Below, piece after piece: positions 24,068 to 49,542 of a stretch of DNA of 64,000 nucleotides; position 1 is the first letter of the stretch; each line of letters opens with the position of its first letter. A program made the translations under genes and the position numbers. The DNA lies in NCBI GenBank assembly GCA_016235065.1, contig JACRMB010000004.1:3629-67628 (forward strand), read 5' to 3'. The stretch comes from Actinomycetota bacterium (GTDB taxonomy: Bacteria > Actinomycetota > Thermoleophilia > BMS3ABIN01). Under the pieces are notes generated by a model. The model was not told where the DNA came from. It searched no databases and was given only the letters and a program-made list of their open reading frames with translations.

Positions 24068-24100
24068 ACCGCTCCCATATGGGGGCGGTTTCTTTTACTC
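24068..24100 (+). terminator. candidate rho-independent terminator after the PurH-like gene
   Basis: ACCGCTCCC-atat-GGGGGCGGT hairpin (one mismatch) followed by TTCTTTTACT. Confidence 0.4.
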
Positions 24101-24141
24101 AAACCAAATCACCTCTTGACACCGAATGCCCCTTGATTTAT

Positions 24142-24194
24142 TCTACGCCGTAGATTAGTATTTCTACATTGTAGTAAAGTTCCTACACCGTAGG
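24142..24194. promoter_or_regulatory. array of three related palindromes (CTAC-N1-3-GTAG), candidate TetR operator
   Basis: TCTACGcCGTAGA (24142..24154), TCTACAtTGTAG (24163..24174), CCTACaccGTAGG (24182..24194), each followed by ATTAGT-like sequence; 50 to 100 bp upstream of the tetR start. Confidence 0.45.
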
Positions 24195-24241
24195 ATTAGT
24201 CCCTGCTAGAACAGTCAGTTGTATCAGGAAGTGAGGCGAAG

Positions 24242-24955: not shown

Positions 24956-24957
24956 TA

Positions 24958-27218: not shown

Positions 27219-27301
27219 ATCACTGGCCTGGCTGTTTATCTGGTCTTAATTGCCATGTATAATGAGGTTACTCAACCAATGGAACCTTTCTTGGGGGAAC
27301 C

Positions 27302-29953: not shown

Positions 29954-29988
29954 TCAGCAGGCGGGTGCCAGGCTGAAATTGCTTGATA

Positions 29989-31239
29989 TCAACCTGAAGG
30001 CGCCACCGCCGGCGTCGCCGGCTGTACCGGCAATATCTGGCCGCAGGTGGGACTGGTCGGCTTGCCGTTGAAACGATCGTCCAGCCACATGGTCACTGTC
30101 GGTCCCGAGACTTTGGCCGCTACCTGGTGGCCGATGCCGCCGAACCACATCGTGGTCAGGTTTGAGCCGGCATCGCATGAGCGTTGAACATAAAGCATCG
30201 TGGTGTTCGGCAGCACTACCTGGTCGTCCAGGCCCTGGGCGATCAGCAGCGGCTGGTCCGGCGGTAGCACCGCAGGGGTCTCACTAGTGGAAGCGCTGTA
30301 CCATGCCGGAAACGTGACCGGATTGTTCTGGAAGAAGTCCTGCCCGAGCTCTTTCCTTATCAGGGCTTCGTCTCCACCCTTCGCCAGGCAATCATTGGCC
30401 ATGGACTCATACCTTTTCTGCCCCGACGAAGATATGACGTCGTCGACGGGGATATCCGGATAGACGCCGGGCCAGGCGACCAGGACCTCGGGTCCGATGA
30501 CCCAGCCTACAACCGACTGGTATTGCTCGGAAAACAGCGTCGCCAGTTCGGCGGCAGGTGCGGCGGCAGCCGTCGCGACAAGGTCCAGCTCGGGAGCGTA
30601 AGACTCTGATTCCATGGCAGTGAAGAGGGCCGCGTGGCCTCCCTGGGAGTGCCCCCAGACGGCATATTCCTTTCCCGCATACGCGGCTTCGACCCGCTGA
30701 GCAGCCCGGACGGAATTGATGACATCCCTGGCTTCGTCACGGCCGACCAGATAGCGCTCGGTGCCCGGCGTACCGAGGCCGGCGTAATCGGTGGCGGCTA
30801 CCACCCAGCCGCGCGCCAGCATCTCCGAAAGCCAGCTCATGTCCCCGATCGGATCCTCGGTACGCGACGGGGCGCAGGCGTCGCCCATCCCCACGGTCGG
30901 ATGAGCCCAGGCGACTACTTTGCGTTTTTCCGCCGGTGCCGGCCCCTCCGGGTAGAAGACCATGCCGGACGAGGCGGTCATCGTGCCGTCAGACTGCTGG
31001 CTGAGATAAAGGACACGCACTCCCTGTCCGCCGCCGGGAATCGAAACATCCAGCGGTTCCTGGCTGATGATCGTGCCGGGAGCTCCGGCAGGCAGGGGTG
31101 ATGGCGGGGCATAGAAGGATTCGAGAGTTTTTTGCCTCTCGTCCTCCTTGATATCTTCACGGCCGACCTTTATCGCTAACGCGAACAGGGCAATGAGTAT
31201 CACTACTCCAACAGCGGTCAATAAACGGTGTCTTGCCAC
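29989..31239 (-). CDS. secreted/membrane-anchored alpha/beta-hydrolase (lipase-like)
   Basis: GHSQGG nucleophile motif; N-terminal signal-anchor; GTG at 31239 (GAAGG RBS) preferred because the ORF-track start at 31335 overlaps the kinase gene. Confidence 0.6.
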   Translation of the reverse strand: MARHRLLTAVGVVILIALFALAIKVGREDIKEDERQKTLESFYAPPSPLPAGAPGTIISQEPLDVSIPGGGQGVRVLYLSQQSDGTMTASSGMVFYPEGPAPAEKRKVVAWAHPTVGMGDACAPSRTEDPIGDMSWLSEMLARGWVVAATDYAGLGTPGTERYLVGRDEARDVINSVRAAQRVEAAYAGKEYAVWGHSQGGHAALFTAMESESYAPELDLVATAAAAPAAELATLFSEQYQSVVGWVIGPEVLVAWPGVYPDIPVDDVISSSGQKRYESMANDCLAKGGDEALIRKELGQDFFQNNPVTFPAWYSASTSETPAVLPPDQPLLIAQGLDDQVVLPNTTMLYVQRSCDAGSNLTTMWFGGIGHQVAAKVSGPTVTMWLDDRFNGKPTSPTCGQILPVQPATPAVAPSG

Positions 31240-31310
31240 GAAGCCAGCCTTCGGTTTTGCGTTCAAGTCATTCCTCCTGAATCGATTCTGATGACAAAGC
31301 AGGCAGACAG

Positions 31311-34094
31311 CTAACTTTCGTTCAGCAGCTCCCATATTTTTTTCAGGATGATCTCCCTCGAATAAGGCTTCTGCAGGAAAGGATATTCGCGCTCATGGAT
31401 GTTTTCCTGCCATTCGATCTCGCTGTAGCCGCTGGCGAGGAGTACGCGCAGGCCGGCTTTTTTCTTCAGCAGCCGGTCGACGAGCATGATCCCGTTTTCC
31501 TGAGGCAGCACCACATCGCTGAAGACAAGATCAAAATCTCCCCGGGCTTCGTCAAATAGCGACAACGCTTCCTCGGCGCTGGCAGCGGTCGTGACGGCAT
31601 ACCCTGCCTTTACCAGGATCCTTTCAGCCAGCTTCCTGACAGTATCTTCATCCTCGACCAGCAGGATCTTTTCTCCCCGTCCCGTCAACTGCGCGGGAGG
31701 GGTCACTTCCTTCACAGTGTCTTCTTCCGTCAAGGGGATGACCGGGAGAAAGAAATAAAGGGTGGAGCCGCGACCAGGATCGCTCTCAACATCTACCCAG
31801 CCTTCATGGTGGGAGATTATGCCGTAGACCACGGAAAGGCCCAGGCCGGTGCCCTGGGCTGCGCCCTTGGTGGTGAAGAATGGCTCATACATATGTGCGA
31901 TCGTCTCGGCGTCCATGCCGCTACCCTCGTCCCTGACGGAGATGCGGACGAATTCTCCTTCCCGGGAATCGGCGTGGGCTTCGGCGTACTTTCTGTCCAC
32001 CGGGAAGTTCTCTGATCTGATCTCGATCTTCCCGCCGTCAGGCATGGCATCCCTGGCATTGACTGCCAGGTTCATGATCACCTGCTGGATATGTGATTTG
32101 TCTGCGCTGACTGTCTTGAGATCCGGTGCGAGGTCGGTAGTCAACATGTAGCGTTCGCCAATGAGCCTCCTGAGCATCTTCATGGCGTCGGTTATCAGTG
32201 CGTTCAGGTTTGTCGGCGCCGGATGCATGGCTTCCTGACGGCTGAAGATCAGCAGCTGCCGGGCCAGGTTGGCGGCGCTCTCGGAAGCCTTGCGTGACTC
32301 CAGCAGTTGCCCATATTCAGCGCTCTCCTCGGGAAGCTCAGTCAACACCAGGTCCGTATAGCCCTCTATGACTGTGAGGAAGTTATTGATGTCATGGGCG
32401 ATCCCTCCCGCCAGCCTGCCGACGGCCTCCATCTTCTGGGCCTGGAGCAGCTGCGCGCGCAGGCTTCTCCGTTCTACCTCAGACTTTTTGCGGTCAGTAA
32501 CCTCCCTGACCGCCTCTATCCCGCCGATTATCTCTCCCTCGGAGTTCCTCAGCGGCGATGCGGTTATTTCGAAATAATGATTACCGTCAGGGAAGACTAC
32601 GGTCCTTTCAGTAAAGTGGATCTTTCCGTCGGCCATCGCCATTGCGACCGGACACCCTTCACAGGCCCCATCCCGCTTTTCATATCCGTTATAGCAATAT
32701 TCCCCTACGTGATCACCGATAAAATCCCGGTGGACCTGGTTCTGGAACAGGACTTTCAGGTCGGTATCCTGGATGCTTATCCCGTCACCGATCCCCTCGA
32801 TGATCGCCCGGTTCTTCTCCTTTTCGTCCTCAGCGAGCTTAAGTGCTTCCTTAAGGGATGCTTCAGCAGTTATGCGTTCAGTGATGTTCTGGGCCGTGCC
32901 GCGCAGCCCTGTGATCGCGCCGGTGGTGTCATGTTTGACTTCACCGCGGGCTACTATCCATCGGCGAGTTGCGTCGGGCTGGGAAAGTTCCAGATCGAGC
33001 TCATAAGGCTCGCCGGTCTTCATGGTCTCTTCGACCGAAGCATTGAGCCGGGCGGCGCTTTCCGGCGTATAGATCCTGAGATGTTCCTTGTAGTTGGGCG
33101 AAGGCTTCGCCGGATCGAAGTTCAGTATGTGATACAGCTCCTCTGACCAGAAAGTGGCGTCGGTAACGGCATCCCAGTCCCAGTTGCCGATCTGCGCGAT
33201 CTGCTGCGCCTCCTTGAATTGCTGCTCGCTTTCAGAGAGCGTTTCTTCCGCATGCCTGCGCTCGGTCAGCTCGACCTGCAGCTGCCTGTTTGCATCCTGC
33301 AGTTCTCCTGTCCTCTCTTTGACACGGACCTCGAGGTCATCCCTTGACCGGCGAAGTTCCAGCTCACCGCGTCTTTGCCTGACAGCCCCCAGGGAGATTC
33401 CAGCGCAACCGGTGAGCCAGATAAGCGAATATATGATGCCGGCCTGCTTCTTCTGAGAATCCGCATGGGCCGCAACCTGAGAGAAGGGTATCGAGATGCT
33501 GACGCCGCCGCGGATGTCACCCTCCTGATAGCCCTGTCCGGCATGGCATTTCAGACAGGGTTTTTCGGTGACCATGGGCCGCATCAGGCGCAGATAGGGC
33601 TGGCCGTCGATCTGCTCGATCGAAGTGACTTCAGTCTGCCCCTCATCGAATGCCCTGAGGGCGGTCGTTTCCCACTGGTCTGCTGCATTCCCGGGACGGA
33701 TCGGATTCAGGCTGGTGATATGGCCAAAAACATCGCCTTCGGCAGCGGCAAGTTCGTTTACCTGCCGGGTCATGTAAGCGGGATTCATGAGTGTCAGCTG
33801 CTTGCCGGATGGTGTGACGATATCCCGCTCAGGTATTTGAGTAAGATATGGATTAGAAGGAGTCTGCGCTGAAACCGGAACATAGACTCCGCCGTGCGAA
33901 GCGTTCCAGCGGCGATAGAGCACGTCCTTTTCCCAGACCACGCTGGCCCGGGTGACGGCTTCGTCTTCGGCCTGCTGATCGATCTCGCTGGCGCTCAAAA
34001 AATAGATGACCACCATTATCGCCGTCCAGCAGACGGCAAGCAGCGTCGCATACCGTGCGGCGCGGGTATATCTATTCCTTATTGTTTTCAGCAT
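31311..34094 (-). CDS. hybrid sensor histidine kinase with periplasmic CxxCH (heme-c) sensor domain, PAS domains, HisKA, HATPase_c and C-terminal receiver
   Basis: TM1, ~150-aa periplasmic domain containing KPCLKCHAGQ (CxxCH at 33543..33557), TM2, PAS repeats, AHDINNFLTVIEGYTDL (H-box), GTGLGLSVVYGII (G2 box), receiver ILLVEDEDTVRKL...DLVFSDVVLP. Confidence 0.85.
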   Translation of the reverse strand: MLKTIRNRYTRAARYATLLAVCWTAIMVVIYFLSASEIDQQAEDEAVTRASVVWEKDVLYRRWNASHGGVYVPVSAQTPSNPYLTQIPERDIVTPSGKQLTLMNPAYMTRQVNELAAAEGDVFGHITSLNPIRPGNAADQWETTALRAFDEGQTEVTSIEQIDGQPYLRLMRPMVTEKPCLKCHAGQGYQEGDIRGGVSISIPFSQVAAHADSQKKQAGIIYSLIWLTGCAGISLGAVRQRRGELELRRSRDDLEVRVKERTGELQDANRQLQVELTERRHAEETLSESEQQFKEAQQIAQIGNWDWDAVTDATFWSEELYHILNFDPAKPSPNYKEHLRIYTPESAARLNASVEETMKTGEPYELDLELSQPDATRRWIVARGEVKHDTTGAITGLRGTAQNITERITAEASLKEALKLAEDEKEKNRAIIEGIGDGISIQDTDLKVLFQNQVHRDFIGDHVGEYCYNGYEKRDGACEGCPVAMAMADGKIHFTERTVVFPDGNHYFEITASPLRNSEGEIIGGIEAVREVTDRKKSEVERRSLRAQLLQAQKMEAVGRLAGGIAHDINNFLTVIEGYTDLVLTELPEESAEYGQLLESRKASESAANLARQLLIFSRQEAMHPAPTNLNALITDAMKMLRRLIGERYMLTTDLAPDLKTVSADKSHIQQVIMNLAVNARDAMPDGGKIEIRSENFPVDRKYAEAHADSREGEFVRISVRDEGSGMDAETIAHMYEPFFTTKGAAQGTGLGLSVVYGIISHHEGWVDVESDPGRGSTLYFFLPVIPLTEEDTVKEVTPPAQLTGRGEKILLVEDEDTVRKLAERILVKAGYAVTTAASAEEALSLFDEARGDFDLVFSDVVLPQENGIMLVDRLLKKKAGLRVLLASGYSEIEWQENIHEREYPFLQKPYSREIILKKIWELLNES

Positions 34095-34307
34095 TCTGAG
34101 AGTACCTTCCCAATTCACTCTTTAGCTAAAACAGGAGTTATTCCTGTTGAACGTAACTTCATGCGGCTACCAGTTCGCCTTTGAGTATCACCGGCGTTGA
34201 AGGGCGTCAAACTTTTGTGTTGAACTGTGATGAGATGATATAGAGTGACGGAATGCGTCATGCTCGCCTGGTCATTTGTCCAGGTCGTGATTCCAGGATG
34301 GGAAAAA

Positions 34308-35183
34308 ATGGGAATAATCGAGACCAAAAGCCTGACCAAGTATTACGGCAGTGCCAAAGGCATAGAAGATGTCACCCTCAGCGTCGAGAAGGGCGAGATA
34401 CTGGGCTTCATCGGCCCCAACGGCGCCGGCAAGTCAACGACTATCCGCCTGCTGCTCTCCCTGATATATCCGACCAGCGGCAGCGCCACCATCTTCGGCA
34501 AAGACATCATCAAGTACGGTCCCGAGATCAAGCGTGAGATCGGCTACATGCCGTCCGAAGTGTTCTATTACGAGAACATGCGGGTCAGGGAGCTGCTCGA
34601 CTACTCCGCCAGTTTTTACGGCAAGGACTGCTCGAAGCGCATCAACGAACTGTCCGGCCTCCTGAAACTGGATCTGAACAAGAAGATAGACGACCTTTCC
34701 TACGGCAACAAGAAGAAAGTCGGCATAGTCCAGGGCCTGCTGCACGACCCGCAGCTTATCATCCTCGACGAGCCGACTGGCGGCCTGGATCCCCTGATGC
34801 AGAAGAACTTCTTCGCTCTGCTCAGGGAGGAGAACAGAGCGGGCAAGACTATCTTCTTCTCGTCGCATATCCTCAGCGAGGTCCAGAAGATCTGCAACCG
34901 TGTAGCTATCATCAGGGACGGTGCGGTGATCAACATCGAATCCATGGAGCACCTGATCCAGAACAACTACAAGCGGGTCCACCTGACAACGAGGCAGAAG
35001 CCTGACAGAAAGCTGTTCGATTTTCCAGGCGTGAGCGACCTGCTGGTTGAGAAGAACGTGGTCAGCTTCCTCTACAAGGGCGATGTGAATACGATCTCCA
35101 GAACCATCGCGCAGATCGACCTGGTCGATTTCATGGTCGGCGAACCGGACCTGGAAGAGATATTCATGCACTACTACCAGTGA
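34308..35183 (+). CDS. ABC transporter ATP-binding protein (ABC-2 type)
   Basis: Walker A GPNGAGKST, signature LSYGNKKKVG, Walker B LIILDEPTGGLD; ATG at 34308 preferred over the longer ORF-track start. Confidence 0.85.
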   Translation: MGIIETKSLTKYYGSAKGIEDVTLSVEKGEILGFIGPNGAGKSTTIRLLLSLIYPTSGSATIFGKDIIKYGPEIKREIGYMPSEVFYYENMRVRELLDYSASFYGKDCSKRINELSGLLKLDLNKKIDDLSYGNKKKVGIVQGLLHDPQLIILDEPTGGLDPLMQKNFFALLREENRAGKTIFFSSHILSEVQKICNRVAIIRDGAVINIESMEHLIQNNYKRVHLTTRQKPDRKLFDFPGVSDLLVEKNVVSFLYKGDVNTISRTIAQIDLVDFMVGEPDLEEIFMHYYQ

Positions 35184-35980
35184 TGCCCATGAACGTCTTT
35201 AGACTGGAGCTGAGGCAGAACCGCAACTCGACGATAGCCTGGACCATCGCCCTGATCGCCGTGGCTGCATTGTACATCTCCATATATCCTTCGATTTCAG
35301 GAAACACGGCCGTGACTGACGTCTACAAGAACTTCCCCGAGGCGTTCAAGAAGACTTTTGGCATCAATGAAGATTTTCTGTCTACTTTTTCCGGCCTGTA
35401 TGCACTGATACTCAACCTGGTGCTGCTTACCGGGGCGGTGCAGGCGATGAACCTCGGCACCGGCATCACTTCAAAGGAGGTGCGGGAGAGGACGGCGGAT
35501 TTCCTGTTGACCAGGCCTGTCAGCCGGATTTCGGTCCTGCGGCAGAAGCTGCTCACGGTATTCCTGCTTATCCTGATCACGGACCTGGTCTTCATGGCGG
35601 CGGACTGGGCCTTGATCCGGGCGGTGATCGACGATCCATTCCGGTTCAGCACCTTCATCACTAGCACCAGCAGCCTGGTCCTGATCCAGCTGTTCTTCGT
35701 CTCGTTCGGTTTTCTCCTGGGTACGTCGCTGCGGCGGATCAAGTCAGTGATCGCCGTATCGCTGCCTGCGGTGTTCGGATTCTATGTGGTCGGGCTGCTG
35801 GACACGGTAGTTGGGGAAAAAATCAAATATCTGACGCCGTTCAAATCCTTCAATCTGAACCTGCTGACGGCCGGAGGCAGCTATGAGACTGGGATTCTTA
35901 TATATCTGGCTGGCCTGTCGATGGCAGCCATCGCCGTGAGTTTTGTGGTTTACAAGAAGAAGGACATCCCCACGATATGA
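35183..35980 (+). CDS. ABC-2 family transporter permease
   Basis: Six predicted TM helices; start overlaps the ATPase stop (TGATG). Confidence 0.7.
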   Translation: MPMNVFRLELRQNRNSTIAWTIALIAVAALYISIYPSISGNTAVTDVYKNFPEAFKKTFGINEDFLSTFSGLYALILNLVLLTGAVQAMNLGTGITSKEVRERTADFLLTRPVSRISVLRQKLLTVFLLILITDLVFMAADWALIRAVIDDPFRFSTFITSTSSLVLIQLFFVSFGFLLGTSLRRIKSVIAVSLPAVFGFYVVGLLDTVVGEKIKYLTPFKSFNLNLLTAGGSYETGILIYLAGLSMAAIAVSFVVYKKKDIPTI

Positions 35981-36010
35981 GGGGCATCTCCACTATATGA
36001 GCCCGGAACG

Positions 36011-36808
36011 ATGAACATATACCTGAAAGAGCTGAAGGATTACCGGAAAGCGATGTTCTTCTGGACGATCGCCATCATCGCCTTCATGCTCTCGGCAATG
36101 AGCAAATATCAGGGATATGCCAAGTCGGGCACCTCGATAAACGAGGTCATCGAGAGCATGCCGGCGGGGCTGGGTGCGGTCCTGGGTTTCAAGGGGCTGG
36201 ACATGCAGACGGCCGGCGGATTCTTCGCCATGTGCGCCCTCTATCTCTCCATAATGCTCGGGGTGCACGCCGTGCTGCTTGGTTCCGGCATCATATCCAA
36301 GGAAGAATCCGACAAGACCATCGAGTTCCTCTACACGAAACCGGTGTCGAGGAACACCATCCTGTTCTCCAAGATGCTTGCGGCTCTCACCACGATAGTG
36401 ATCCTGAATATCGTCACCGCCATTACCTCTGTCATCAGTGTGGCAGCGTTTGCTGAAGGGCCACCCATGAGCAGCGACATAATATTCCTGATGCCGTCAA
36501 TATTCTTCCTGCAACTCTGGTTCCTGATGATCGGGGCCACCTTCGCGGCGGTCATGCGCCAACCGAGGCGCGCAGGGACGTATTCCGCCTCGGTGCTCCT
36601 GGCGACCTTCGTCATCTCCGCGTTCGTCGACATCACCGACAGGTTCGGATTCCTGAGATATATGACGCCGTTCAAGTACTTCGATCCGAAAACCATATTC
36701 GCCGAGCACAGTTACAGCGTCACTTATATTCTGATCACGCTGATGGCGACGGCCATCATGCTCGCGTGGTCCGGTGTGGCGTACAGGAACAGGGACTTCA
36801 TTATTTGA
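36011..36808 (+). CDS. ABC-2 family transporter permease (paralog)
   Basis: Same topology and recognisable similarity to the preceding permease. Confidence 0.7.
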   Translation: MNIYLKELKDYRKAMFFWTIAIIAFMLSAMSKYQGYAKSGTSINEVIESMPAGLGAVLGFKGLDMQTAGGFFAMCALYLSIMLGVHAVLLGSGIISKEESDKTIEFLYTKPVSRNTILFSKMLAALTTIVILNIVTAITSVISVAAFAEGPPMSSDIIFLMPSIFFLQLWFLMIGATFAAVMRQPRRAGTYSASVLLATFVISAFVDITDRFGFLRYMTPFKYFDPKTIFAEHSYSVTYILITLMATAIMLAWSGVAYRNRDFII

Positions 36809-37038
36809 CAGTAGTCGCATATATGACAGATATAAAACATGTGTAGGGCTGGGATCCTGGTGATATCCTTGGTGTTGTGAAATGATTGGTCTGAGTTCAC
36901 CGAAGGTATCTTGGGAGTCATGTATTGCCATCAATAGGATTTCCGGAATTAATAGCGATGTTCATCATTGGTACGGTAATCACGGTCATAGCGATACTTG
37001 TGCAGAATGGCAAGTAAGAAGAACCGGGTAATGACCTG

Positions 37039-38283
37039 ATGAACCGCCTCGCGGTCGCGACGATCGTCGCAAAAAATCACATCTCCTACGCGCGCGTGCT
37101 CGCGGAGTCTTTCAGGGAACACCATTCGGATGTTCCGTTCCATGTCCTGCTGGCAGACGAGATCGACGGGCTGTTCGATCCGGCGAACGAACCGTTCGAA
37201 CTTCTCACCCTGAAGGACCTGTCCATCCCGCATCAGGAGCGCTTCCGCTTCAACTACGCGCAGCAGGAACTAAGCTATGCCTGTACGCCGTATCTTCTGG
37301 AGATGCTTCTCGACCGCGGTTTCACTGCCGCGGCCTTCCTCAAGCAGGAAAGCCTGGTGCTGGATGATCTTTCTCCCGTCATGTCGGAGATGCTGCGGCA
37401 CCCGATCACGCTGACTCCGCACCTGCTGGAGCCCCTGATCGGCGAGGACGCCGCCGCCCGGGAACTCAATATCCTCCAGTCCGGCATCTATAACGTGGGT
37501 TTTCTCGGGGTCAGCGACTCCACTGCTGCGCGCCGGTTCCTCTCCTGGTGGCAGGACCGGGTCTACCGGCATTGCCGTCACGACGTTCCGGGAGGCATGC
37601 ACTTCGAGCAGCGCTGGCTCGACCTGGCGCCCGTCTATTTCGAAGGAACTCACATGGTGCGCGATCCCGGCTTCAACCTGGGCCACTGGAATCTCTCCGA
37701 GCGGGAGGTGCGAGTCTCCGCCAGCGGCCTGACCGCCGGCGGCAGCACCTTGCGGTTCATGCGTTTCAGCGGCTTCGAGCCGGAACAGCCCGAGGCAGTT
37801 ACCAGGTACAACGGGCGTCTGGAGATGGGGGATATAGGCCCGGCTGCGGACCTGTTCCGCAGGTATGCCCGCCTGCTTGACGAGGCGGGATATCAGGAGA
37901 CGAGCCTCTGGAAATATTCCTATGACAGTTTCGATAACGGGGTCGGTATCCCGTTTGTGGCCAGGCAGATTTACCGGGATCTAGGGGTGGAGGCTGAAGC
38001 ATTCGGCGATCCCTTCGAGTCATCTGGATCCGCCGGCTATTTCAACTGGTTACGTGAGCCGGCTGGGCGGGAATCCATCAATCCCTCCTCAAGCGAAGGA
38101 GCAGACGACGGCGGGATTGTGTCAAACCTCTGGCAGGGAGTCTACGAGAGGCGGCCCGACGTCAGGGCGGCGTTTCCCGATCTTGCAGGTTCGGACCACA
38201 GCGCCTTTCTGGATTGGGCTGAACGTTACGGTATTAATGAACACAGCATCCCCGAAGTCTTCCATCCGAAAGGCCGGCCGTAG
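37039..38283 (+). CDS. GT-A fold glycosyltransferase, GT8-like (paralog 1)
   Basis: Shares FARVLA.SFREHH, TPHLLEP, ILQSG and EQRWLDLAPVYFE motifs with the next two genes; DxD-like LVLDDL at the position where paralogs have YLDADI. Confidence 0.55.
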   Translation: MNRLAVATIVAKNHISYARVLAESFREHHSDVPFHVLLADEIDGLFDPANEPFELLTLKDLSIPHQERFRFNYAQQELSYACTPYLLEMLLDRGFTAAAFLKQESLVLDDLSPVMSEMLRHPITLTPHLLEPLIGEDAAARELNILQSGIYNVGFLGVSDSTAARRFLSWWQDRVYRHCRHDVPGGMHFEQRWLDLAPVYFEGTHMVRDPGFNLGHWNLSEREVRVSASGLTAGGSTLRFMRFSGFEPEQPEAVTRYNGRLEMGDIGPAADLFRRYARLLDEAGYQETSLWKYSYDSFDNGVGIPFVARQIYRDLGVEAEAFGDPFESSGSAGYFNWLREPAGRESINPSSSEGADDGGIVSNLWQGVYERRPDVRAAFPDLAGSDHSAFLDWAERYGINEHSIPEVFHPKGRP

Positions 38284-39226
38284 CGTGTTCCGGAAAAGAA
38301 GAAAAACCGGAGCCAGGCAGAAGTACGCCGCAGCCGCAGCCGGCACCATCATATCGAAGAATTATCTGCCCTTCGCTCGCGTTCTGGCATCCTCCTTCCG
38401 GGAGCATCACCCCGAGATTCCGTTCCACGTCCTGCTGATGGACGAGGTCGACGGTTGCTTCGACCCGCTCCGGGAGTCCTTCCCCATACTGAACCCTGGC
38501 GATGCAGGGATCACGGGTATCCCCGGTTTCGGGCGGGGCTACAGCCGCGAGCAGCTGCTCTCGGCGGCAAAGCCATACCTGCTTAGCCACCTGCTCGATG
38601 CCGGCCATGAGACTGCCGTCTACCTGGATGCCGATATCATGGTACTGGCAGATCTGATGGCGCCGCTCGGGGAAGCGGCGGCGCGGGGTGTGGTGCTGAC
38701 GCCCCATCTCCTGGAGCCCCTGGTCTCTGAGGACAGGGCGGCCCGGGAGCTCAACATCCTCCAGTCAGGATGCTTCAACGCCGGCTTTCTATCTGTTTCG
38801 GATCAGCCATCCTCGCGGCAGTTCCTCTCCTGGTGGCAGAAAAGAGTGAGGGAGCACTGCCAGCCGGCGGTAGCCGAAGGCATGCATCTTGACCAGCGCT
38901 GGCTCGACCTGGCTCCGGTCTACTTCGAGGATATGCAGGTCATGCGGCATCCAGGCTTCAACGTGGGACACTGGAACCTGCCCGAGCGGGCGCTGCTTCA
39001 GGATGAACGAGGCCTTACGGCAGACGGTGATCCCTGCTGTTTCTTCCACTTCAGCGGTTTCGATCCCGAGTGGCCGCAGGTCGTCACCAGATATAACGGG
39101 CGGCTGACGATGGATGATATCGGCCCGGCGGCGGCGGGGCTATTCATTCAGTACGCTTCCCTGCTCAAAGCCGCCGGCTATGAAGAGGCCCGGGATTGGC
39201 CATTCAGGAATCCTCTCGGGAAGTAG
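38237..39226 (+). CDS. GT-A fold glycosyltransferase, GT8-like (paralog 2)
   Basis: AVYLDADIMV (GT8-type DxD), TPHLLEPLVSED, DQRWLDLAPVYFE; start ambiguous (ATG 38237 overlapping upstream gene, or GTG 38285). Confidence 0.55.
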   Translation: MNTASPKSSIRKAGRSVFRKRRKTGARQKYAAAAAGTIISKNYLPFARVLASSFREHHPEIPFHVLLMDEVDGCFDPLRESFPILNPGDAGITGIPGFGRGYSREQLLSAAKPYLLSHLLDAGHETAVYLDADIMVLADLMAPLGEAAARGVVLTPHLLEPLVSEDRAARELNILQSGCFNAGFLSVSDQPSSRQFLSWWQKRVREHCQPAVAEGMHLDQRWLDLAPVYFEDMQVMRHPGFNVGHWNLPERALLQDERGLTADGDPCCFFHFSGFDPEWPQVVTRYNGRLTMDDIGPAAAGLFIQYASLLKAAGYEEARDWPFRNPLGK

Positions 39227-39265
39227 CCGGCTCCCATACATGAAAAGTAGCCGATCCTCTGAATC

Positions 39266-41692
39266 CTAAGGGGTAGTAGCCGGCCCCCGGAATCGTTTCA
39301 GGATGAACCCTCCGGGCTGGCGGCCGGGACCTTTTGTTACTTTACGGCCCCTGATACCGCCTAGTCGTCTGTTGATGAGATCCAGCCTGGCTTCCGGGCT
39401 GTGCATTTCGGCCATGTCACTGCGTGCTTTTTCCGCTTTAAGCCTCGCCTCATCCGGATTGTCATACACCAGTCGTATGTACGAGGCCGCTGCTTCCGTG
39501 TCTGGATCGGCCCAGGCATAACCCCTGGGATAAGGCGCGCATCCCCCGGGGACCTCTGTCATCGTGAACGGGACCAGGTAGCTGTTATCGTCGTCCATGA
39601 ATTCCAGGTTTCCCGAATACCCCGTGGCGATCACCGGTTTTCCATGCGCCATCGCTTCGGCCATGGTCAGTCCGAAACCCTCGGCCCGGTGCAGCGAGAC
39701 GTAGGCGTCGCACGAAGAGATCAGCGCCTGCTGATCCTCCCGACTCAGGTAACCGTCGATGACTCTGATATCAGGCCGGCCGGCGGCAGCCGCAGCCAGG
39801 CGCTCCATCTCCAGTATCCTTCTGTCACCGTTGATGGTCTTGATGATCAAAGCCGGCCCTTCACCGGGGTCGAAGGCCAGTTTGAAAGCTTCGATGACCG
39901 CCAGCGGATTCTTCCTCTCCATAACGCTGAGAAAATCGAAACAGAAGAGGAAGGAGAATCCGTCTGGAGGGCTTGAGTCTGTCAGTTGGCGGTCCGTGGA
40001 CAGGAGCGCCGGCGTGGAGACTGGCAGCGGGAACTTGTACACCGGTTTGCCGGTCGCCTCTGCGAGTGCTTTTACCGCATGATCGCTGTAAGTCCAGATC
40101 TCATCGACTGACCCCAGGGTCACGGGATCTATGCCGCCGGGATGCTCCTCCAGTTCCCAGGCCCACACCGCTATGGTGTAGCGTCCGTCGAAGAGTTCGA
40201 GGCCTGCATTGCTGGCGAAGACCGGGAACTGGTCGGCATTGACGCAGATGATCGAGATGTCGAAGCAGGCCGCGGCAGTCTGCAGATCGGAATCCAGTTG
40301 CCGCGACTGTGTAGCTTCGAGCGGCGCCATCGTGACATGAGGTATGCCGCCTGCCTTCAGTGTCTCGAGTATCAGACGGACGGATTCTCCCAGGCCACTT
40401 TGGCTATTGATGTAGCCGGCGACGTTGACGCCGGTGTCCATGCCAGGTTCAATGCTGGTCCTGCGGCGCCGGCCGCCCGTTTTTTTCGGCAGGCATTCGG
40501 ATGGTATGCCATGTTCCTTCCCGCCGTGCTCCAGCACCCAGTCGAGAAAGCGGTCAGCATCCGCGCCATGGATGTCGGGGAAGTTGAGCTTGAGGTCGAG
40601 GCGGCTGTCATGGATGAATGAGAGAAGGCGTGATATCCCGGCCTGAGGCGAAGAGGGAAGCGGCGAGTTGAGCCAGCTGGTGAACTCATCCGAACTGGCG
40701 ATGTCGAACGGGTCCGGGAACGGTTCCTCACCGGTTGTGTCCTCCAGTAATAATCGCCGGCAAGCCCGGCGCAGGTCCTTGCTGAAGCTGAGGCCGCCGG
40801 CAGCCGAGTCGAAGCCGAAGCCGCGGGGTGAGTCAGGGCTGCCGTGACCATGCTTTCGCAGTTGCCTGGCGTAGCGGTCACAGATCCGGGCGGTTGCGGG
40901 GTTCTGGCTGAGCAGGATGCGCGGCCGGGTCCCCTGATGCCGGCTCAAAAGGTGTGGCGCGTCCGGATCGAAGCCGCTGAGATGAAAGCAGCGTAGCGGC
41001 ATGCCATCTACCAGGAAGTCATCGTTCTCAAAAGTCAGGTTCCGGCTGGCAAGATTCCAGTAAGCCACGTTGAAAGCGGGGTCCCGCAAAACATGACGGG
41101 GGATGAAATCGGGCAGGATGTCCAGCCACCGCTGGTCGGCGAAATAGCCATCCGCCGGAGATATTATACAGTCACGCCGCAGCCGTTCCTTCCACCAGCT
41201 GAGAAAGTCACCGTTGCCGGCAGCCACTGCGATGAAACCGAGATTGAAAGTCCCCGCCATCAGCAGATCGGTTTCCCGCGGGGATAGATCATCCCGCGGC
41301 AGCGGCTCGAGAAGGTGTGGCGTCAGCACGATGCCATGTTGCCGGGCCAGGGCATCCACTTCATCCAGTGGTGCGTAGACATCCATATCGGCGTCGAGGT
41401 AGAGCACGACATCGCTACCCTGTCCGTGGAGATGGTCGATCAGCCATGGTTTCAGGGCGGAAGCAAGCTCCCTGGGCTCATAAATGGCAGCCATGGTATG
41501 GAAATCTCGCCGGTCGAGCGGGAGATCTTCCGGCCGGACAAGATCGAAGCCCTCGCCCTCGCCACTGAAGCCGCCCCCGACGTCATCGAATACAAGGACG
41601 CTGATCCGGTCGCCATGACAGGCCGAATATGAATCGGCCAGCACCCTGGCGAAAGGAAGGTGACTGCGGGAGATGATCGTGCAGGCTTTCAT
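39266..41692 (-). CDS. bifunctional glycosyltransferase: N-terminal GT8-like domain fused to C-terminal GT4 (GT-B) domain
   Basis: N-terminal VLYLDADMDV, TPHLLEP, DQRWLDILP; C-terminal GT4 signature RAEGFGLTMAEAMAHGKPVIATGYSGNLEF. Confidence 0.75.
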   Translation of the reverse strand: MKACTIISRSHLPFARVLADSYSACHGDRISVLVFDDVGGGFSGEGEGFDLVRPEDLPLDRRDFHTMAAIYEPRELASALKPWLIDHLHGQGSDVVLYLDADMDVYAPLDEVDALARQHGIVLTPHLLEPLPRDDLSPRETDLLMAGTFNLGFIAVAAGNGDFLSWWKERLRRDCIISPADGYFADQRWLDILPDFIPRHVLRDPAFNVAYWNLASRNLTFENDDFLVDGMPLRCFHLSGFDPDAPHLLSRHQGTRPRILLSQNPATARICDRYARQLRKHGHGSPDSPRGFGFDSAAGGLSFSKDLRRACRRLLLEDTTGEEPFPDPFDIASSDEFTSWLNSPLPSSPQAGISRLLSFIHDSRLDLKLNFPDIHGADADRFLDWVLEHGGKEHGIPSECLPKKTGGRRRRTSIEPGMDTGVNVAGYINSQSGLGESVRLILETLKAGGIPHVTMAPLEATQSRQLDSDLQTAAACFDISIICVNADQFPVFASNAGLELFDGRYTIAVWAWELEEHPGGIDPVTLGSVDEIWTYSDHAVKALAEATGKPVYKFPLPVSTPALLSTDRQLTDSSPPDGFSFLFCFDFLSVMERKNPLAVIEAFKLAFDPGEGPALIIKTINGDRRILEMERLAAAAAGRPDIRVIDGYLSREDQQALISSCDAYVSLHRAEGFGLTMAEAMAHGKPVIATGYSGNLEFMDDDNSYLVPFTMTEVPGGCAPYPRGYAWADPDTEAAASYIRLVYDNPDEARLKAEKARSDMAEMHSPEARLDLINRRLGGIRGRKVTKGPGRQPGGFILKRFRGPATTP

Positions 41693-41729
41693 GGCGTTCT
41701 AATTCTAATGGTATTTGCATCGCACATGT

Positions 41730-41759
41730 AGTCTGAAGGAGTCTGAAAGAGTCTGAAGG
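41730..41759. repeat. three tandem copies of 10-mer AGTCTGAARG in a divergent intergenic region
   Basis: aGTCTGAAGG aGTCTGAAAG aGTCTGAAGG between the glycosyltransferase fusion gene (-) and the LVIVD surface protein gene (+). Confidence 0.5.
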
Positions 41760-41832
41760 TGAAAATTCAAACCGATAATGTAAGTGGTATATATGAAGAT
41801 TAAAAACCACTGCTGATGGGAATCTTCGCGCC

Positions 41833-44800
41833 ATGATAGCAAAGACATCTATTCGCTGTGTTACTGCGGCAGTGCTGTTCATGTTTCTTGTTCTGCTGTA
41901 CGTATCCAGCGTAATGGCAGCGCCCGGGCCGGATATCAGCGGGCTTGTTTCTCCCACACACGCTGATGAGAACACCTGGTACTCGAACAACGATCCTTCG
42001 TTTTCCTGGAGCTCCGCGTTTGAAACCGGCCTGGCAGGTTCGTATTCGACGCCGGGCCATTCATATGATGTCGCTGTTTCGGGCATATATGCATATATTG
42101 CGGATGGGGGTTACGGACTTCGTATAATCAACATCTCCAATCCGGCAAGCCCGACGCTCGCAGGCTTTTACGACACGCCCGCCGCCGCCAGCGGTCTGGA
42201 CATCTCCGGCAGCTATGCTTATGTGGCCGACGATACTAGCCTGCAGATAATCAACATCTCCAACCCGGCCAGCCCGACTCTGGCTGGATCACTTGCGATG
42301 TCCAGCGCCGTCGACGTTGCCGTTTCAGGCGACTTCGCTTACGTCGCCAGCTATGGCTACGGATTGAGAGTCATAGATATTTCGAACCCGGCCAGCCCGG
42401 CGCTCAGGGGAACATTCAATACGCCGGGCATCGCCGTAGGAGTCGCTCTTTCGGGAAATCATGCGTATGTGGCCGACAACAACTCCGGCCTACAGATAAT
42501 CGATGTCACCGATCCGGACAATCCGGCGTTCGCGGGTGCATACAACCCAGGCTATTCATTCTTAGCGGCCAGAGTTTCCGGGACGCTGGCTTATATGGCC
42601 GCAGGCAGTTCGGGCCTTGTCATCGTCGACATCTCTGATCCGGCTAATACGTCACTGGCTGGAGCATACGATACACCGGGCAGTGCTCTCGATGTTGCTG
42701 TTTCAGGAATCTATGCATATATGGCGGATTATTCCTCCGGCCTGCAGATCCTGGATATCTCAAACCCGGCAAATCCGACGCTGGCTGGCTCCTACGCCAC
42801 GTTGCCGGCCAGTTATGCAGAAGACGTCGATGTCTCAGGCAGTTTTGCATACCTGAGCGACTATACCGTCGGCCTGACGATCGTTGAAGCGTCTACGGCC
42901 ACCGGTTATTCCTATATATTCGACCAGAATCCGGCAACGGTACCGGATACTGTTTCCGAGGGGGCCGATACCAGCAAGGCCTACACTGATACCGGCGATG
43001 GCATCTGGTATTTTCATGTAAGGGCAGTGGATCCCCTGGGTAACTGGGGCGCGGCCAGCCATCGTAAAGCGCAGATCGACACCGGAGCACCGGTTATCAC
43101 CAACATCCTGCCTTCGGGCACCATAACCACCGGCGATCCCGCTACCGTACAGGCAGACCTGAGCGACAGCATCTCCGGCATCGACGTCGCCACGGGTTCC
43201 GTCTCAGTTGACGGTACTGAACTGACAGGCTGCGTCGTCAACAGCTCGCTGGTGAGCTGCGATACCAGCTCGGCCGGTTTCGCTGAGGGGGCACACAGCA
43301 TATCGGTGACCGCCTATGACAACGCGGGTAACCCCAATACGGCCACCGGATCCTTCTCAGTCGACTCCATCGCTCCCTCTGTGACCGGCATTCAGCCTGG
43401 TGGCACGATCAACACCACTTCGACGACCATAAGCGCTGATTATAGTGATTCCGGTTCCGGCATCGACTCCGCGACTGCGACAGTCTACCTGGATTCAGTG
43501 CTTGTTACAGGATGCACGGCTGATGCAGTTAGCGTCAGCTGCCCGGTCACGGGGCTGTCTGTAGGAGCCCATTCGATCACAGTGTACGTCAGTGACAATG
43601 CGGGCAACACCGGATCGGGGTCAGGCAGCTTCACCATGACCCTGAGCCGGGACTACTACTGGGGACGTTATGACGGCACCAACAGTCTGGACTGGATCCT
43701 GCTGGGGAATCCGCCTGGTTCATCAGGGAACCTGACATTCGATCTTTATATCAGCACGGATGAGCAGTCACTGGCGCCATTCGTCATACCCGGCTATGGC
43801 GTGGGTGAGGTGCCGCCGGGCCAGTCGATAACTCCGATGTTCAACATGCCACCGGCGGGCCCGGTCAAAGCCTTGTCCACTACGGGCGGTCAGGCTATCG
43901 CTTCCCAGCGCATCCTCTGGAAAAGCAGGTATTTCGAAGAGGTGCCGGGGATCGAGGCAGGAAGCTTGTCCAGCCATTATTACTGGACCTGGTATGACCA
44001 GTTCTCACCAGGATTCTCCCAGGATGAGATCATCGTCGTCAATACCAACACGGAGCCGGTCATGGTGGAGATCTCCTTTACTGATGTGGCTCATCCACCG
44101 GCGGCCGATCCTGTGGACGACACTTTCCCGTTGCAGCCAGCTGGGACTCCCGGAGGCACGGATACCCTGAGACAGAGTTACCCGGGCAAGATGGGCGGCC
44201 CTGTGGAAGTCAAGGCATGGCTGGCTGGCGGTACATACGAGAGCGATCCCAGGAATGTGGTAGCAACCCAGCGGGTGATCAAGGACCAGGGTGCCGCTAC
44301 GGAGCATCTAAACGAGGTCCCCGGCATCCCGGCAGATGATCTCACCAGCGATTACTGGTGGACCTGGTACGACTGGAACAGCTCGGGAGCTTCCAACTGG
44401 GTACTGGTCTCAAATCCCGGCGCTGAAGCAGTCCATGTGGATATCTCATTCAGGAACGACCAGACAGGGACGATTGAGACCCTGGATGCCGACCTGCCCC
44501 CGGCAGCTCCCGGTGTCGCCCCATGGACGCCCAGCTTCGCCGGCAAAAAAGGTGGGCCTGTTGAAGTCAGGGCGTCGCTCGCCAGCGACCATAACCAGCC
44601 GCGTGACGTCATCGCCTCCCAACGATCGGTCTGGACCACATTCTTCGAAGAGGTGCCGGGCTTCGCGGCCTCGCAGCTATCGCCCCGCTATCTATGGACC
44701 TGGTATGACTGGAACAGCGCCGGCTCACAGAACTGGGTGATGGTAGCCAATCCGACCGCGGATACGGTTCACTCCGAGATCTCCTTCAAGGACTCGACTA

Positions 44801-45021
44801 CCGGAGAGACCAGGGGGGACGCCAATGTGATCCTCCAGCCGGCCGGCTCCAACGGGTCCATCAGGTACCTGCGCTTCGACGGATACATGGGAGGGCCCGT
44901 GGAAGTAAAGGCCTACCTGGAAGGCAGCGATTACGTAACCAGTCCGCGTGATGTCATAGCCTCCCAGCGGGTGCTATGGAACGGACAGTTCAATGAGGTG
45001 CTGGGAACTCTGCTGGAGTAG
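41833..45021 (+). CDS. secreted surface protein: LVIVD-repeat beta-propeller, Ig-like domains, and five copies of the shared C-terminal repeat module
   Basis: Signal anchor; repeats GLRIINISNPASP/GLVIVDISDPANT (LVIVD family); two two-Cys Ig-like domains; C-terminal repeats (about 43645..45018) with WTWYD, WVLVSNP, GGPVEV and ASQRVLW. Confidence 0.8.
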   Translation: MIAKTSIRCVTAAVLFMFLVLLYVSSVMAAPGPDISGLVSPTHADENTWYSNNDPSFSWSSAFETGLAGSYSTPGHSYDVAVSGIYAYIADGGYGLRIINISNPASPTLAGFYDTPAAASGLDISGSYAYVADDTSLQIINISNPASPTLAGSLAMSSAVDVAVSGDFAYVASYGYGLRVIDISNPASPALRGTFNTPGIAVGVALSGNHAYVADNNSGLQIIDVTDPDNPAFAGAYNPGYSFLAARVSGTLAYMAAGSSGLVIVDISDPANTSLAGAYDTPGSALDVAVSGIYAYMADYSSGLQILDISNPANPTLAGSYATLPASYAEDVDVSGSFAYLSDYTVGLTIVEASTATGYSYIFDQNPATVPDTVSEGADTSKAYTDTGDGIWYFHVRAVDPLGNWGAASHRKAQIDTGAPVITNILPSGTITTGDPATVQADLSDSISGIDVATGSVSVDGTELTGCVVNSSLVSCDTSSAGFAEGAHSISVTAYDNAGNPNTATGSFSVDSIAPSVTGIQPGGTINTTSTTISADYSDSGSGIDSATATVYLDSVLVTGCTADAVSVSCPVTGLSVGAHSITVYVSDNAGNTGSGSGSFTMTLSRDYYWGRYDGTNSLDWILLGNPPGSSGNLTFDLYISTDEQSLAPFVIPGYGVGEVPPGQSITPMFNMPPAGPVKALSTTGGQAIASQRILWKSRYFEEVPGIEAGSLSSHYYWTWYDQFSPGFSQDEIIVVNTNTEPVMVEISFTDVAHPPAADPVDDTFPLQPAGTPGGTDTLRQSYPGKMGGPVEVKAWLAGGTYESDPRNVVATQRVIKDQGAATEHLNEVPGIPADDLTSDYWWTWYDWNSSGASNWVLVSNPGAEAVHVDISFRNDQTGTIETLDADLPPAAPGVAPWTPSFAGKKGGPVEVRASLASDHNQPRDVIASQRSVWTTFFEEVPGFAASQLSPRYLWTWYDWNSAGSQNWVMVANPTADTVHSEISFKDSTTGETRGDANVILQPAGSNGSIRYLRFDGYMGGPVEVKAYLEGSDYVTSPRDVIASQRVLWNGQFNEVLGTLLE

Positions 45022-49400: not shown

Positions 49401-49542
49401 ACGACATGGCCAGGATGGCGATTACTGAGAAGAGGAAGATAAACGCAAATGAGGATTTTTGGCGTGCGCTTTCAACGAACCCACCCATTGCGCCTCCAGA
49501 ATCTGGCATATCTGAGAGAAGCTTAATTGAAACGATTGCCAA
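46417..49542 (-). CDS. secreted surface protein: TolB-like beta-propeller, two-Cys Ig-like domains, and four copies of the shared C-terminal repeat module
   Basis: N-terminal signal; GKIAFVSYRDGNAEIYTVNPDRSG-type PD40 blades; Ig-like domains with GC...C pattern; C-terminal repeats (about 46420..47715) with FPWYD, WVLVANP and ASQRVLW. Confidence 0.8.
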   Translation of the reverse strand: MAIVSIKLLSDMPDSGGAMGGFVESARQKSSFAFIFLFSVIAILAMSSSADATVKPNGKIAFVSYRDGNAEIYTVNPDRSGLTRITNSPAVEQSPAFSPDGSKIAFSSNRNGTNKIYVLRLSDMSISQLTFGSNYDDSPTWSPDGSRIAFTRTFGIVGFGVQKLYVMNSDGSELNQLTNNSGTYENPAWSPDGSRIAFNANSGTYGIFFINPDGGNQTALNVYGWPASFNSMPSWAPDSSKIACYVYFNANDSGIYTMKPDGTQPQPVITRTWTWSPFYSQPAWSPDGTSIAFIQKDNSNNCTLCTARATGGGCYNIADLGHPFYERITPSWGPLVLQAQNISPSGWLRTTSQAIEADLTDNGSGIDSSSVAVYIDDTSAPGCSLVGAHLSCSTSDFSAGWHSLTISYETNDGTPGLSDSPFGVDLAPPAISEAIPPVWSGSATVIGATLSDQQSGPDSSASAVYLDGSSQPLTNCDISDSSLLRCQASGLSDGHHDFLIVGRDKAGNSATLNGSFEVETTKPEIGGTSPSGNVWASTAIINASYTDSKSGVNPNSVKLTVNGIVVTSRATISVDQVSYFNPNCGIQNVHLEVSDVVGNTQTADWSYSTPMHYYFPWYDNIYGHTWLLAAQMPGSGTNIVDFWMKTNSLEQGIGVNDGETQFRSYDKRLGGPIKIMSQYGNGISSERSLFGNSFEEVWSTSYDDLDTHYYWPVYLGSMTSEWVLVANPAENGEAVEVDISIRNVEDINKIPVPDIYVNRHVIQPGDTWTPTWPYSGGPVEVKAYRVGGSPNNSADARKVVASERILMGDSFNEMAGIAASKLSNEYEWPWYDSQNANDLVIVGNPNSEPVYLFLYLHGQLMASSDGVPSGTTIWWDSSPQKLMDGPIEVKACFDTTEACYSPANIYTSQIVIYGPSYEETAGVPLNSLKPTANWTWYDEKSAGSLNWVLVANPNASAIYYEISVPGKLDPANPADPYYSTNHGVLAPGQRVTPRFPGIIGGPVQVRAWQWNGSSKENPANVLASQRVLWKGYFNELVGAGL

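Follow-up and report, generated by a model that had tools for sequence, protein, structure and literature searches.

A paired canonical and metal-site-swapped GT8-like protein beside an independent ABC-2 exporter in an Actinomycetota genome

The 64,000-nucleotide stretch of Actinomycetota contig JACRMB010000004.1 analysed here (hereafter the window) carries, at positions 34308-41692, an operon for an ATP-binding cassette (ABC) exporter followed by three glycosyltransferase-like genes, which a preliminary description made from the DNA letters had taken together as a locus dedicated to the synthesis and export of a glycan or to the glycosylation of surface proteins. The exporter and the glycosyltransferases are two functionally independent units, adjacent by chance in this metagenome-assembled genome (MAG). 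The first unit (34308-36808) is a self-contained ABC-2 exporter with one ATPase and two different permeases of six transmembrane (TM) segments, and the second (37039-41692) is a triad belonging to a large family of GT8-like, presumably retaining glycosyltransferases of the GT-A fold. We favour, with a probability of about 0.6, a reading in which an unrelated exporter adjoins a cytoplasmic glycan-building triad consisting of an obligate pair of paralogs, here referred to as K-type and D-type, and a bifunctional GT8-like/GT4 enzyme.

The new element is the apparently obligate pairing of a canonical GT8-like protein with one whose metal site has been swapped, in a family that has no Pfam model. 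The K/D pairing rule provides a clean test case for the rebuilding of a GT-A active site without metal, the outcome being either a new metal-free catalysis or a highly constrained pseudoenzyme partner, and it marks a two-gene module that annotation pipelines can use. The chance juxtaposition that gave the appearance of a "synthesis plus export" locus is, in turn, a warning against inferring function from adjacency in one genome.

The triad and its two subtypes

The triad comprises three open reading frames (ORFs), namely paralog 1 (37039-38283, plus strand), paralog 2 (in an ORF at 38054-39226, plus strand) and the gene for an 808-residue fusion protein (39266-41692), which lies on the minus strand and is convergent with the pair formed by the other two. 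Over the common domain the latter two proteins share 55% and 35% identity, respectively, with paralog 1, and the motifs TPHLLEP and (E/D)QRWLD are invariant, in agreement with the paralogy proposed earlier. A TM scan detected no TM-like segment in any of the three proteins. The closest relative, locus L006, has the same arrangement, with a triad 73-81% identical to that of the window (K-type 79%, D-type 81%, fusion 73-74%). GTG 38285 is the more likely initiation codon of paralog 2, because it is located 1 nt past the TAG of paralog 1, has a GAAAGG 11 nt upstream and coincides with the point at which similarity to the L006 orthologue begins; the alternatives are ATG 38237, chosen by the gene caller, and the ORF start at 38054, which would overlap paralog 1 by 230 nt.

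A DxD of the YLDADI type had been ascribed to all three genes. It is present in paralog 2 (YLDADI) and in the fusion protein (YLDADM), but paralog 1 has FLKQES at that site. Paralog 1, the K-type protein of 414 amino acids, consists of a GT-A domain of about 260 residues and a helical C-terminal extension, and its signature, which includes no DxD, is formed by T83 (37285-37287), K102-Q-E104 (37342-37350), E190 (37606-37608) and R242 (37762-37764). Paralog 2, the D-type protein of 313 amino acids (38285-39226), was assigned from alignments and a sub-threshold match to Glyco_transf_8; it is devoid of the helical extension and carries K96, D115-A-D117 (38627-38635), D203-Q (38891-38896) and H255 (39047-39049). 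The putative catalytic-site motifs are K, DAD, NxG, DQ and H in paralog 2 and the fusion protein and T, KQE, NxG, EQ and R in paralog 1.

Five positions separate the two types, with T, K-Q-E, E and R in the K-types as against K, D-x-D, D and H in the D-types. The fifth of these switching positions is occupied by Thr in the K-types and by Lys in the D-types; in GT8 enzymes the helix at this position carries the Lys or Arg that contacts the diphosphate. The signatures are strictly coupled in 241 sequences, 98 of which have KQE/E/R (one of them as KEE) and 143 DxD/D/H; apart from a single DPD/E/H among the latter, mixtures do not occur. The DxD sequences include 23 single-domain proteins with D-A-D/D/H and fusion proteins with D-P-D/D/H (117), DAD (2) or DPD/E/H (1). 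At each of the five discriminating columns, 55-59 of the 59 K-type and 59-62 of the 62 D-type domains carry the residue of their class. The other hallmark residues, namely PH, E142, G149, N152, G154, WW, Q-R-W, D195, RD, N213, W217 and SG, are common to both types.

When the five columns were removed from the comparison, 58 of the 59 K-types were still nearest to the K-type of another locus, which indicates one ancient split. The view of the K-type as a recently decayed or gene-converted copy of the paralog next to it was therefore rejected, since K-types cluster across phyla even without the signature columns. Mean identity across 55 loci is 50.8% for K-types and 43.5% for D-types in a sample biased towards K-type similarity, and a stronger statement, that the K-type is the more conserved of the two, was dropped as its figure of 96% came from loci picked by similarity to a K-type query. 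The unbiased comparison of the window with L006 gives equal values (79% and 81%), and hence the K-type is described only as at least as conserved as the D-type. The K-types form an old, well-conserved clade, and the orthologue comparison shows purifying selection on the K-type to be no weaker than that on the D-type partner.

A further signature was observed in locus L086 (Actinomycetota MAG contig WLOQ01000002), where a 1719-residue ORF at 6020-12982 has two family domains, the second with R-P-A / E / H. Two genes of a D-T-D type follow this ORF and represent another variant of the family.

Pairing of the K- and D-types

A D-type gene is directly adjacent to the K-type gene on the same strand in 55 of 59 non-redundant loci, in the order K-then-D in 52 and D-then-K in three. 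In two of the four unpaired loci the D-type hit is truncated, and the other two are situated about 1 kb or less from the end of a contig. At four of the 55 paired loci, from two phyla, one in Pyrinomonadaceae (L017) and three in Solirubrobacteraceae (L036, L038 and L048), the K- and D-type domains are joined in a single ORF, and the 149 best family representatives include three single-chain K-D proteins and one D-K protein. In L001 and L004 the called K and D genes have 4 nt in common, and the pair is likely to be translationally coupled.

Proteins that form a physical complex are classically recognised by genes that stay adjacent, are probably coupled in translation and have fused more than once, from which we infer that the K- and D-type proteins form an obligate heteromer. 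Pairs of catalytic and non-catalytic glycosyltransferases are represented by plant GAUT1:GAUT7 (GT8), streptococcal GtfA/GtfB and the EXT and CHSY/CHPF complexes. The K/D pair would resemble these in that a paralog devoid of the metal motif needed for catalysis accompanies a canonical enzyme as its seemingly obligate partner. It differs from them in that the K-type has invariant substitutions, balanced in charge, that affect the metal/diphosphate site only and leave the remaining pocket intact; in that conservation of the K-type is no lower than that of the catalytic subunit; and in that the pairing takes the form of bacterial gene adjacency and fusion.

Relation of the shared domain to GT8 enzymes

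Searches of the shared N-terminal domain against Pfam and NCBIfam returned no significant family. The score of paralog 2 against Glyco_transf_8 (PF01501) is 20.6 bits against a gathering cut-off of 24.3, and paralog 1 and the fusion protein have no match; among 18 family members only two D-types match PF01501 and three match PF03407, all weakly. A family profile compared with the sequences in PDB gave chance matches only, at E >1. At the level of structure, the AlphaFold2 model of paralog 1 (predicted local distance difference test, pLDDT, 87.5; predicted template modelling score, pTM, 0.88) has a GT-A fold with GT8 enzymes as the nearest structural neighbours, of which glycogenin is the top match and LgtC and other enzymes of polysaccharide and lipopolysaccharide (LPS) synthesis score equally well.

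Alignment with hhalign to WaaJ and WaaO of E. coli K-12 (NC_000913.3) and to a manually entered LgtC sequence places KQE on DxD, NVG on NSG and EQ on DQ, with an E-value of 0.0025 and a probability of only 12%. The alignment ends before the His/Arg position, which is mapped from the H-[FY]-x-G motif and the strand position only. The family shares with LgtC, glycogenin, WaaJ/WaaO and GlyE the motif order DxD, NxG, DQ and H-x-x-G and a soluble, cytoplasmic nature. Unlike them, it is only 10-17% identical to GT8 enzymes, has a sub-threshold or no match to PF01501 and no sequence match in PDB, includes a K-type subfamily without metal ligands, and carries after the GT-A core some 150 additional residues, which form a helical module not covered by any GT8 structure. 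The shared domain is thus GT8-like at the level of fold and motifs and lies outside the Pfam GT8 family, so that the earlier GT8-like assignment stands for the fold and the motif order and fails for membership of PF01501; the predicted metal-binding DxD is seen in paralog 2 and the fusion protein and is missing from paralog 1. By analogy with GT8 enzymes, the chemistry of these domains is presumably retaining (alpha).

Possible roles of the K-type protein

The D-type appears to keep a GT8-style site for Mn2+ and diphosphate (Lys, DxD, DQ and His), at which it would transfer a sugar from a nucleotide diphosphate (NDP)-sugar using Mn2+. The K-type swaps exactly these residues and keeps NxG, Q-R-W, PH and WW. 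It would act only in complex with its D-type partner, and it may either bind the acceptor or growing chain or constitute a second site that dispenses with metal, Lys and Arg taking the place of the cation.

The explanation that survives best, though we hold it at somewhat less than an even chance, is that the K-type is a non-catalytic pseudo-glycosyltransferase that stabilises, localises or presents substrate to the catalytic D-type subunit, as GAUT7 does for GAUT1 and GtfB for GtfA. Every residue that binds metal and diphosphate in GT8 enzymes is replaced in the K-type, the K-type is almost never found without a D-type partner, and the empty metal site could be filled by a salt-bridge network of K102, E104 and R242. 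A non-catalytic role is harder to reconcile with the remaining pocket (N152, G154, Q191-R-W, P127-H128 and W170-W171), which is invariant in both types, with substitutions that are themselves invariant and charge-balanced rather than random, and with a level of conservation equal to or above that of the catalytic partner.

It is less likely, and in our estimate doubtful, that the K-type is an active metal-independent retaining GT-A enzyme with Lys and Arg in place of Mn2+, which would make the pair a heterodimeric two-site enzyme whose sites add different sugars, much as in LARGE1 with its two GT-A domains. The sugar-binding motifs are kept in the K-type, the five-position swap is strictly fixed across phyla and natural single-chain K-D and D-K proteins exist. 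Metal-independent GT-A enzymes also have precedents in Bacteroides ovatus GT6a (BoGT6a), with an NXN motif, and in the GT14 enzyme C2GnT-L, where Arg378 and Lys401 stand in for the metal (PMC3961637). The K-type is like these enzymes in that the DxD is replaced and basic residues are placed where they would assume the role of the cation, and differs from them in that they act alone, whereas in the nearly always partnered K-type the DxD has become K-x-E and the metal-binding His an Arg. Loss of the diphosphate-contacting Lys/Arg of GT8 enzymes (Thr83 in the K-type) counts against autonomous catalysis, as does the obligate pairing, which an autonomous enzyme would not need. In its fullest form the proposal would be that K-types constitute an unrecognised class of metal-independent retaining GT-A enzymes, with a fixed Lys-x-Glu and an Arg in place of the DxD/His/Mn2+ centre and active only as heterodimers or single-chain fusions with a canonical Mn2+-dependent paralog, and that the pair is a two-site builder of an alternating alpha-glycan in the cytoplasm of many soil bacteria; this proposal is speculative and on balance improbable.

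The predicted bifunctional GT8-like/GT4 protein

The 808-residue protein, a predicted GT-A + GT-B (GT4) bifunctional enzyme with both catalytic signatures intact, agrees with the earlier view of a two-active-site fusion. Residues 1-260 (40913-41692, minus strand) form a D-type GT8-like GT-A domain with K81, D100-A-D102 (41387-41395), D186-Q187 (41132-41137) and H237 (40982-40984). Residues 261-414 (40451-40912, minus strand) fold into a helical module linking the two catalytic domains, as delineated by alignments and the secondary structure of the model; it is homologous to the C-terminal extension of the K-type, with which it shares the motif PDPFD...W...FPD..G.D..FL.W. Residues 415-808 (39266-40450, minus strand) form a complete GT4 glycosyltransferase, with R593/K594, an EX7E motif running from E671 to E679 (39656-39682) and a disordered tail at about residues 787-808.

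The C-terminal part scores 48.7 bits against Glycos_transf_1 (PF00534; cut-off 26.4). In the AlphaFold2 model (pLDDT 83, pTM 0.74) the GT-A domain is followed by the helical module and then by a complete GT-B domain of two Rossmann folds, and in Foldseek searches the C-terminal half aligns over about 400 columns to the GT4 structures 3oy2 (chlorovirus), GlgM 6tvp, PimA 2gej, BshA, HepE and TreT, with target-normalised TM scores of 0.65-0.73. The Pfam threshold, the EX7E motif and the fold thus all identify a GT4 enzyme. Across 120 homologs, which also demonstrate that the fusion architecture is widespread, both sites are conserved (K81, D100, D102, N150, G152, D186, Q187 and H237 in the first; R593, K594, E671 and E679 in the second), with E671 at 100% and E679 at 99%. 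Sixty-eight of the 120 homologs exceed 1100 amino acids, and the listed proteins of that length carry S-adenosylmethionine (SAM)-methyltransferase Pfam domains. A fusion of a D-type domain with GT4 occurs at most 10 kb from a K/D pair in the window and in L006, L004, L056 and L073, a proximity far above chance, yet found in a minority of loci.

Family distribution and the probable product

Clustering at 50% identity gives 9,915 representatives of the family. When one genome was scanned for each species, at least 582 species genomes had matches; they belong to the Acidobacteriota, Actinomycetota, Chloroflexota, Verrucomicrobiota and Rokubacteria and include Arcobacter, Pseudomonas fluvialis and some Proteobacteria. 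Most of the listed members of this family, for which Pfam provides no model, are labelled "hypothetical protein", and keyword searches of the literature found no paper on it. BLAST clustering of 838 ORFs within 8 kb of the family genes placed GT4 proteins in 15 of 81 loci, ABC ATPases in nine, Wzm-like permeases in six and methyltransferases in about nine, and in a Pfam scan of 132 immediately flanking ORFs (about 38 loci) no family occurred in more than four ORFs. A fixed larger operon was therefore rejected, as neither analysis revealed a conserved neighbour of the pair.

Distant D-type singletons (26-33% identity) of cultured Proteobacteria were found in O-antigen-like clusters with Wzm/Wzt, methyltransferase and rfb genes. 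The cluster of Citrobacter braakii pF217-3 has rfbCD, an ABC permease, an ABC ATPase, a 649-residue methyltransferase and glycosyltransferases, that of Azospirillum B510 pAB510f has rfbABCD, galE, a 914-residue fusion and a methyltransferase, and Pandoraea oxalativorans pPO70-3 has a distant D-type in an ABC-transporter-dependent cluster; L004 has a context like that of these plasmids (Wzm/Wzt, methyltransferase and rfb). E. coli genomes searched with the DNA of the Citrobacter homolog gave no match. The occurrence of distant D-types in Wzm/Wzt clusters makes a role in glycan polymers reasonable for the wider family. These clusters agree with the logic of multi-module polymerases and terminators known from the Klebsiella O4/O7 O-antigen systems (PMC11231755). 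The fusion protein of the window is like these polymerases and WbbM (GT111+GT8, PDB 6u4b) in having two glycosyltransferase modules in one polypeptide, and its family is like them in being often fused to, or adjoining, SAM-methyltransferase domains resembling terminators and in having distant members in Wzm/Wzt and methyltransferase clusters. They differ in that the window fusion combines GT8-like and GT4 modules and that the window, from an actinobacterium without LPS, has no Wzm/Wzt, coiled-coil terminator or initiating enzyme.

Other neighbours of family members were also observed. A PhyH-type dioxygenase gene adjoins family members in Pseudomonas fluvialis (L084:14134-15165), where it occurs together with a polysaccharide pyruvyl transferase, and on the Pandoraea plasmid (L093:10309-11562). 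On a Priestia aryabhattai plasmid (NZ_CP129010.1; L091, 8314-10005) a 563-residue protein with a C-terminal D-type domain lies beside pseG, pseH, pseI and galE, hinting that some members may be tied to glycans containing nonulosonic acids.

For the triad of the window we infer a polymerase role, in which the GT4 site of the fusion protein would add a second sugar to that transferred by the D-type sites, giving a two-site alternating polymerase or extender as in ABC-transporter-dependent O-antigen polymerases; the identity of the sugars, the acceptor and any export of the product are likewise putative. The product could be exported, as in the proteobacterial relatives, or intracellular, as the stand-alone pairs and the structural neighbours resembling glycogenin and GlgM/TreT would suggest. 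A strictly intracellular product, whether a cytoplasmic alpha-glycan that is methylated or primes itself in the manner of glycogenin, a protein bearing sugars or the glycoside of a small molecule, seems to us unlikely, a little more so than a catalytic K-type. It would suit the solubility of all three proteins in the TM scan, the position of glycogenin as top structural match, the cytoplasmic GlgM, TreT, BshA and glycogen synthase among the GT4 structural neighbours, the SAM-methyltransferases that many fusions carry or adjoin, and the pair and many fusions standing alone, with no export, flippase or initiating genes. Such genes for export could, however, lie elsewhere in the genome, LgtC and other polysaccharide/LPS enzymes match the structure as well as glycogenin does, and distant members reside in classical Wzm/Wzt clusters.

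Several observations weigh against the favoured reading of a glycan-building triad with an obligate pair. The physical interaction of K- and D-type proteins is deduced from gene order and fusions only. The domain is placed in GT8 by no sequence model, with an empty PDB profile search and an hhalign probability of 12%. The pair and the fusion are within 10 kb of each other in only about five of 59 pair loci and may be separate modules. Finally, the pair usually stands alone, and Pfam scans of the 64-kb window detected neither a phosphoglycosyl transferase for initiation nor a flippase, a Wzm/Wzt system or genes for nucleotide sugars, which makes for a poor fit to a classical exported-polysaccharide pathway.

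The ABC-2 exporter and its independence

The exporter operon is encoded on the plus strand. It begins with a DrrA/GldA-like ABC transporter ATPase of 291 amino acids (ATG 34308 to 35183, in an ORF that opens at GTG 34245; ABC_tran, 93.9 bits), followed by permease 1 (266 amino acids, 35180-35980) and permease 2 (265 amino acids, 36011-36808), which score 48.4 and 97.1 bits, respectively, against ABC2_membrane_2 (PF12679; cut-off 27.2) and have six TM-like segments each in the TM scan. An ABC_tran ATPase with six-TM permeases of the ABC-2 clan characterises an ABC-2 type exporter, and the ATPase with two ABC-2 permeases reported earlier is thereby confirmed. The best NCBIfam matches of the ATPase, GldA and DrrA, are both under their cut-offs. 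The operon is like DrrAB-, GldAFG- or NatAB-like exporters in having one ATPase and six-TM permeases that pass the Pfam thresholds, and differs from them in having two different permeases and no NCBIfam equivalog match. The Wzm-type model PF01061 gives 19 bits on permease 2 (cut-off 26.9); with this low score, and with a co-location that is not kept in relatives, the operon does not qualify as a Wzm/Wzt exporter coupled to the glycosyltransferases.

An AT-rich spacer of 230 bp (36809-37038) separates the operon from the K/D pair and is probably the boundary between two transcription units. Rfam gave no match on 33800-42200, which includes the spacer, and a scan for promoters and terminators found no consensus signal above shuffled background at the spacer, so that the scan provides no evidence on operon boundaries. 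The spacer contains a possible 49-codon ORF (36883-37032, plus strand) and the gene caller placed a 65-residue ORF in it, neither of which is supported as real.

The two units occur apart from each other in relatives. L006 has the triad and no ABC-2 operon, with Lon and HSP20 in its place. Conversely, orthologues of the operon (67-86% identity) occur in L094, L095 and L096, from contigs or MAGs of the Thermoleophilia type, where orthologues of the 291-residue ATPase lead the same three-gene operon, and a six-frame hidden Markov model search found no member of the glycosyltransferase family within 7 kb of it. In L094 the operon follows AICARFT, TetR, MMPL and lipase genes, matching window 22986-31335, and precedes a PAS histidine kinase; the exporter thus belongs to a conserved TetR-MMPL-lipase-kinase neighbourhood. 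Homologs of the window-type permease were absent from about 85 other loci of the family. The triad without the operon, the operon without the family, the spacer and the absence of this permease type elsewhere identify the exporter as a bystander.

A single locus devoted to making and exporting a glycan, or to glycosylating the surface proteins encoded next to it, is consequently very unlikely, even though the genes are adjacent with the ABC operon oriented like the K/D pair, a 140-bp gap is all that lies between the fusion gene and a divergently oriented gene for an LVIVD surface protein, a related Ig-like surface protein lies about 2 kb from the fusion gene in L006, and distant family members adjoin Wzm/Wzt ABC-2 exporters, with Wzm-like permeases near the family in six of 81 loci, since the triad occurs without the operon (L006) and the operon without the family (L094-L096, of which L094 retains the upstream synteny of the window), the permease type of the window (PF12679 and not Wzm PF01061) is missing from all other family loci, the AT-rich gap separates the units and Pfam scans of the window found no accessory-secretion or initiating enzymes. 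An exporter or surface-protein neighbourhood that is not conserved, with the Ig-like protein of L006 as a weak exception, is what the preliminary description had itself named as contradicting its interpretation. Its observations were largely correct and its interpretation half right, in that the folds and the fusion hold and the DxD of paralog 1 and the link to the exporter and surface proteins do not.

Two other assignments were considered and rejected. Glycosylation of surface proteins by an accessory-Sec system was rejected as no SecA2, SecY2, Asp or serine-rich substrate gene was found among the window ORFs of at least 200 amino acids scanned with Pfam, and a GtfA match in NCBIfam (E 4e-4) reflects generic GT4 similarity. 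Membership of an anti-phage defence system, a search prompted by a GT4-conflict Pfam hit, was rejected as PADLOC returned no match for any of the three glycosyltransferases.

Neighbouring genes and other features of the window

The order AICARFT-TetR-MMPL-lipase-ABC-2 operon extends over window 22986-36808 and L094:1-7798 at 86% identity; relative to L094, a PD40 protein and the Tll0287-like hybrid kinase have been inserted or rearranged inside the block in the window. In L095 and L096 (3144-7798) a second pair of ABC ATPase and ABC2_membrane_2 permease precedes the operon, giving two exporter modules in tandem.

Flanking the interval, as had been noted earlier, are a sensor kinase and large surface proteins, which Pfam identifies as a hybrid histidine kinase bearing a Tll0287-like domain and as LVIVD and PD40 proteins. 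Four very large putative surface proteins are encoded at 27-7088 (plus strand; Big_13/NosD/CE2_N), 27302-29953 (plus; PD40), 41833-45021 (plus; LVIVD) and 46417-49542 (minus; PD40). The three of these that were tested have about 30% identity over 450-660 residues to one Ig-like protein of L006 (130-2673), which suggests that the large surface proteins may have a common module, possibly for anchoring. A 266-residue heliorhodopsin is encoded at 12595-13395 (minus strand; PF18761, E 9e-103).

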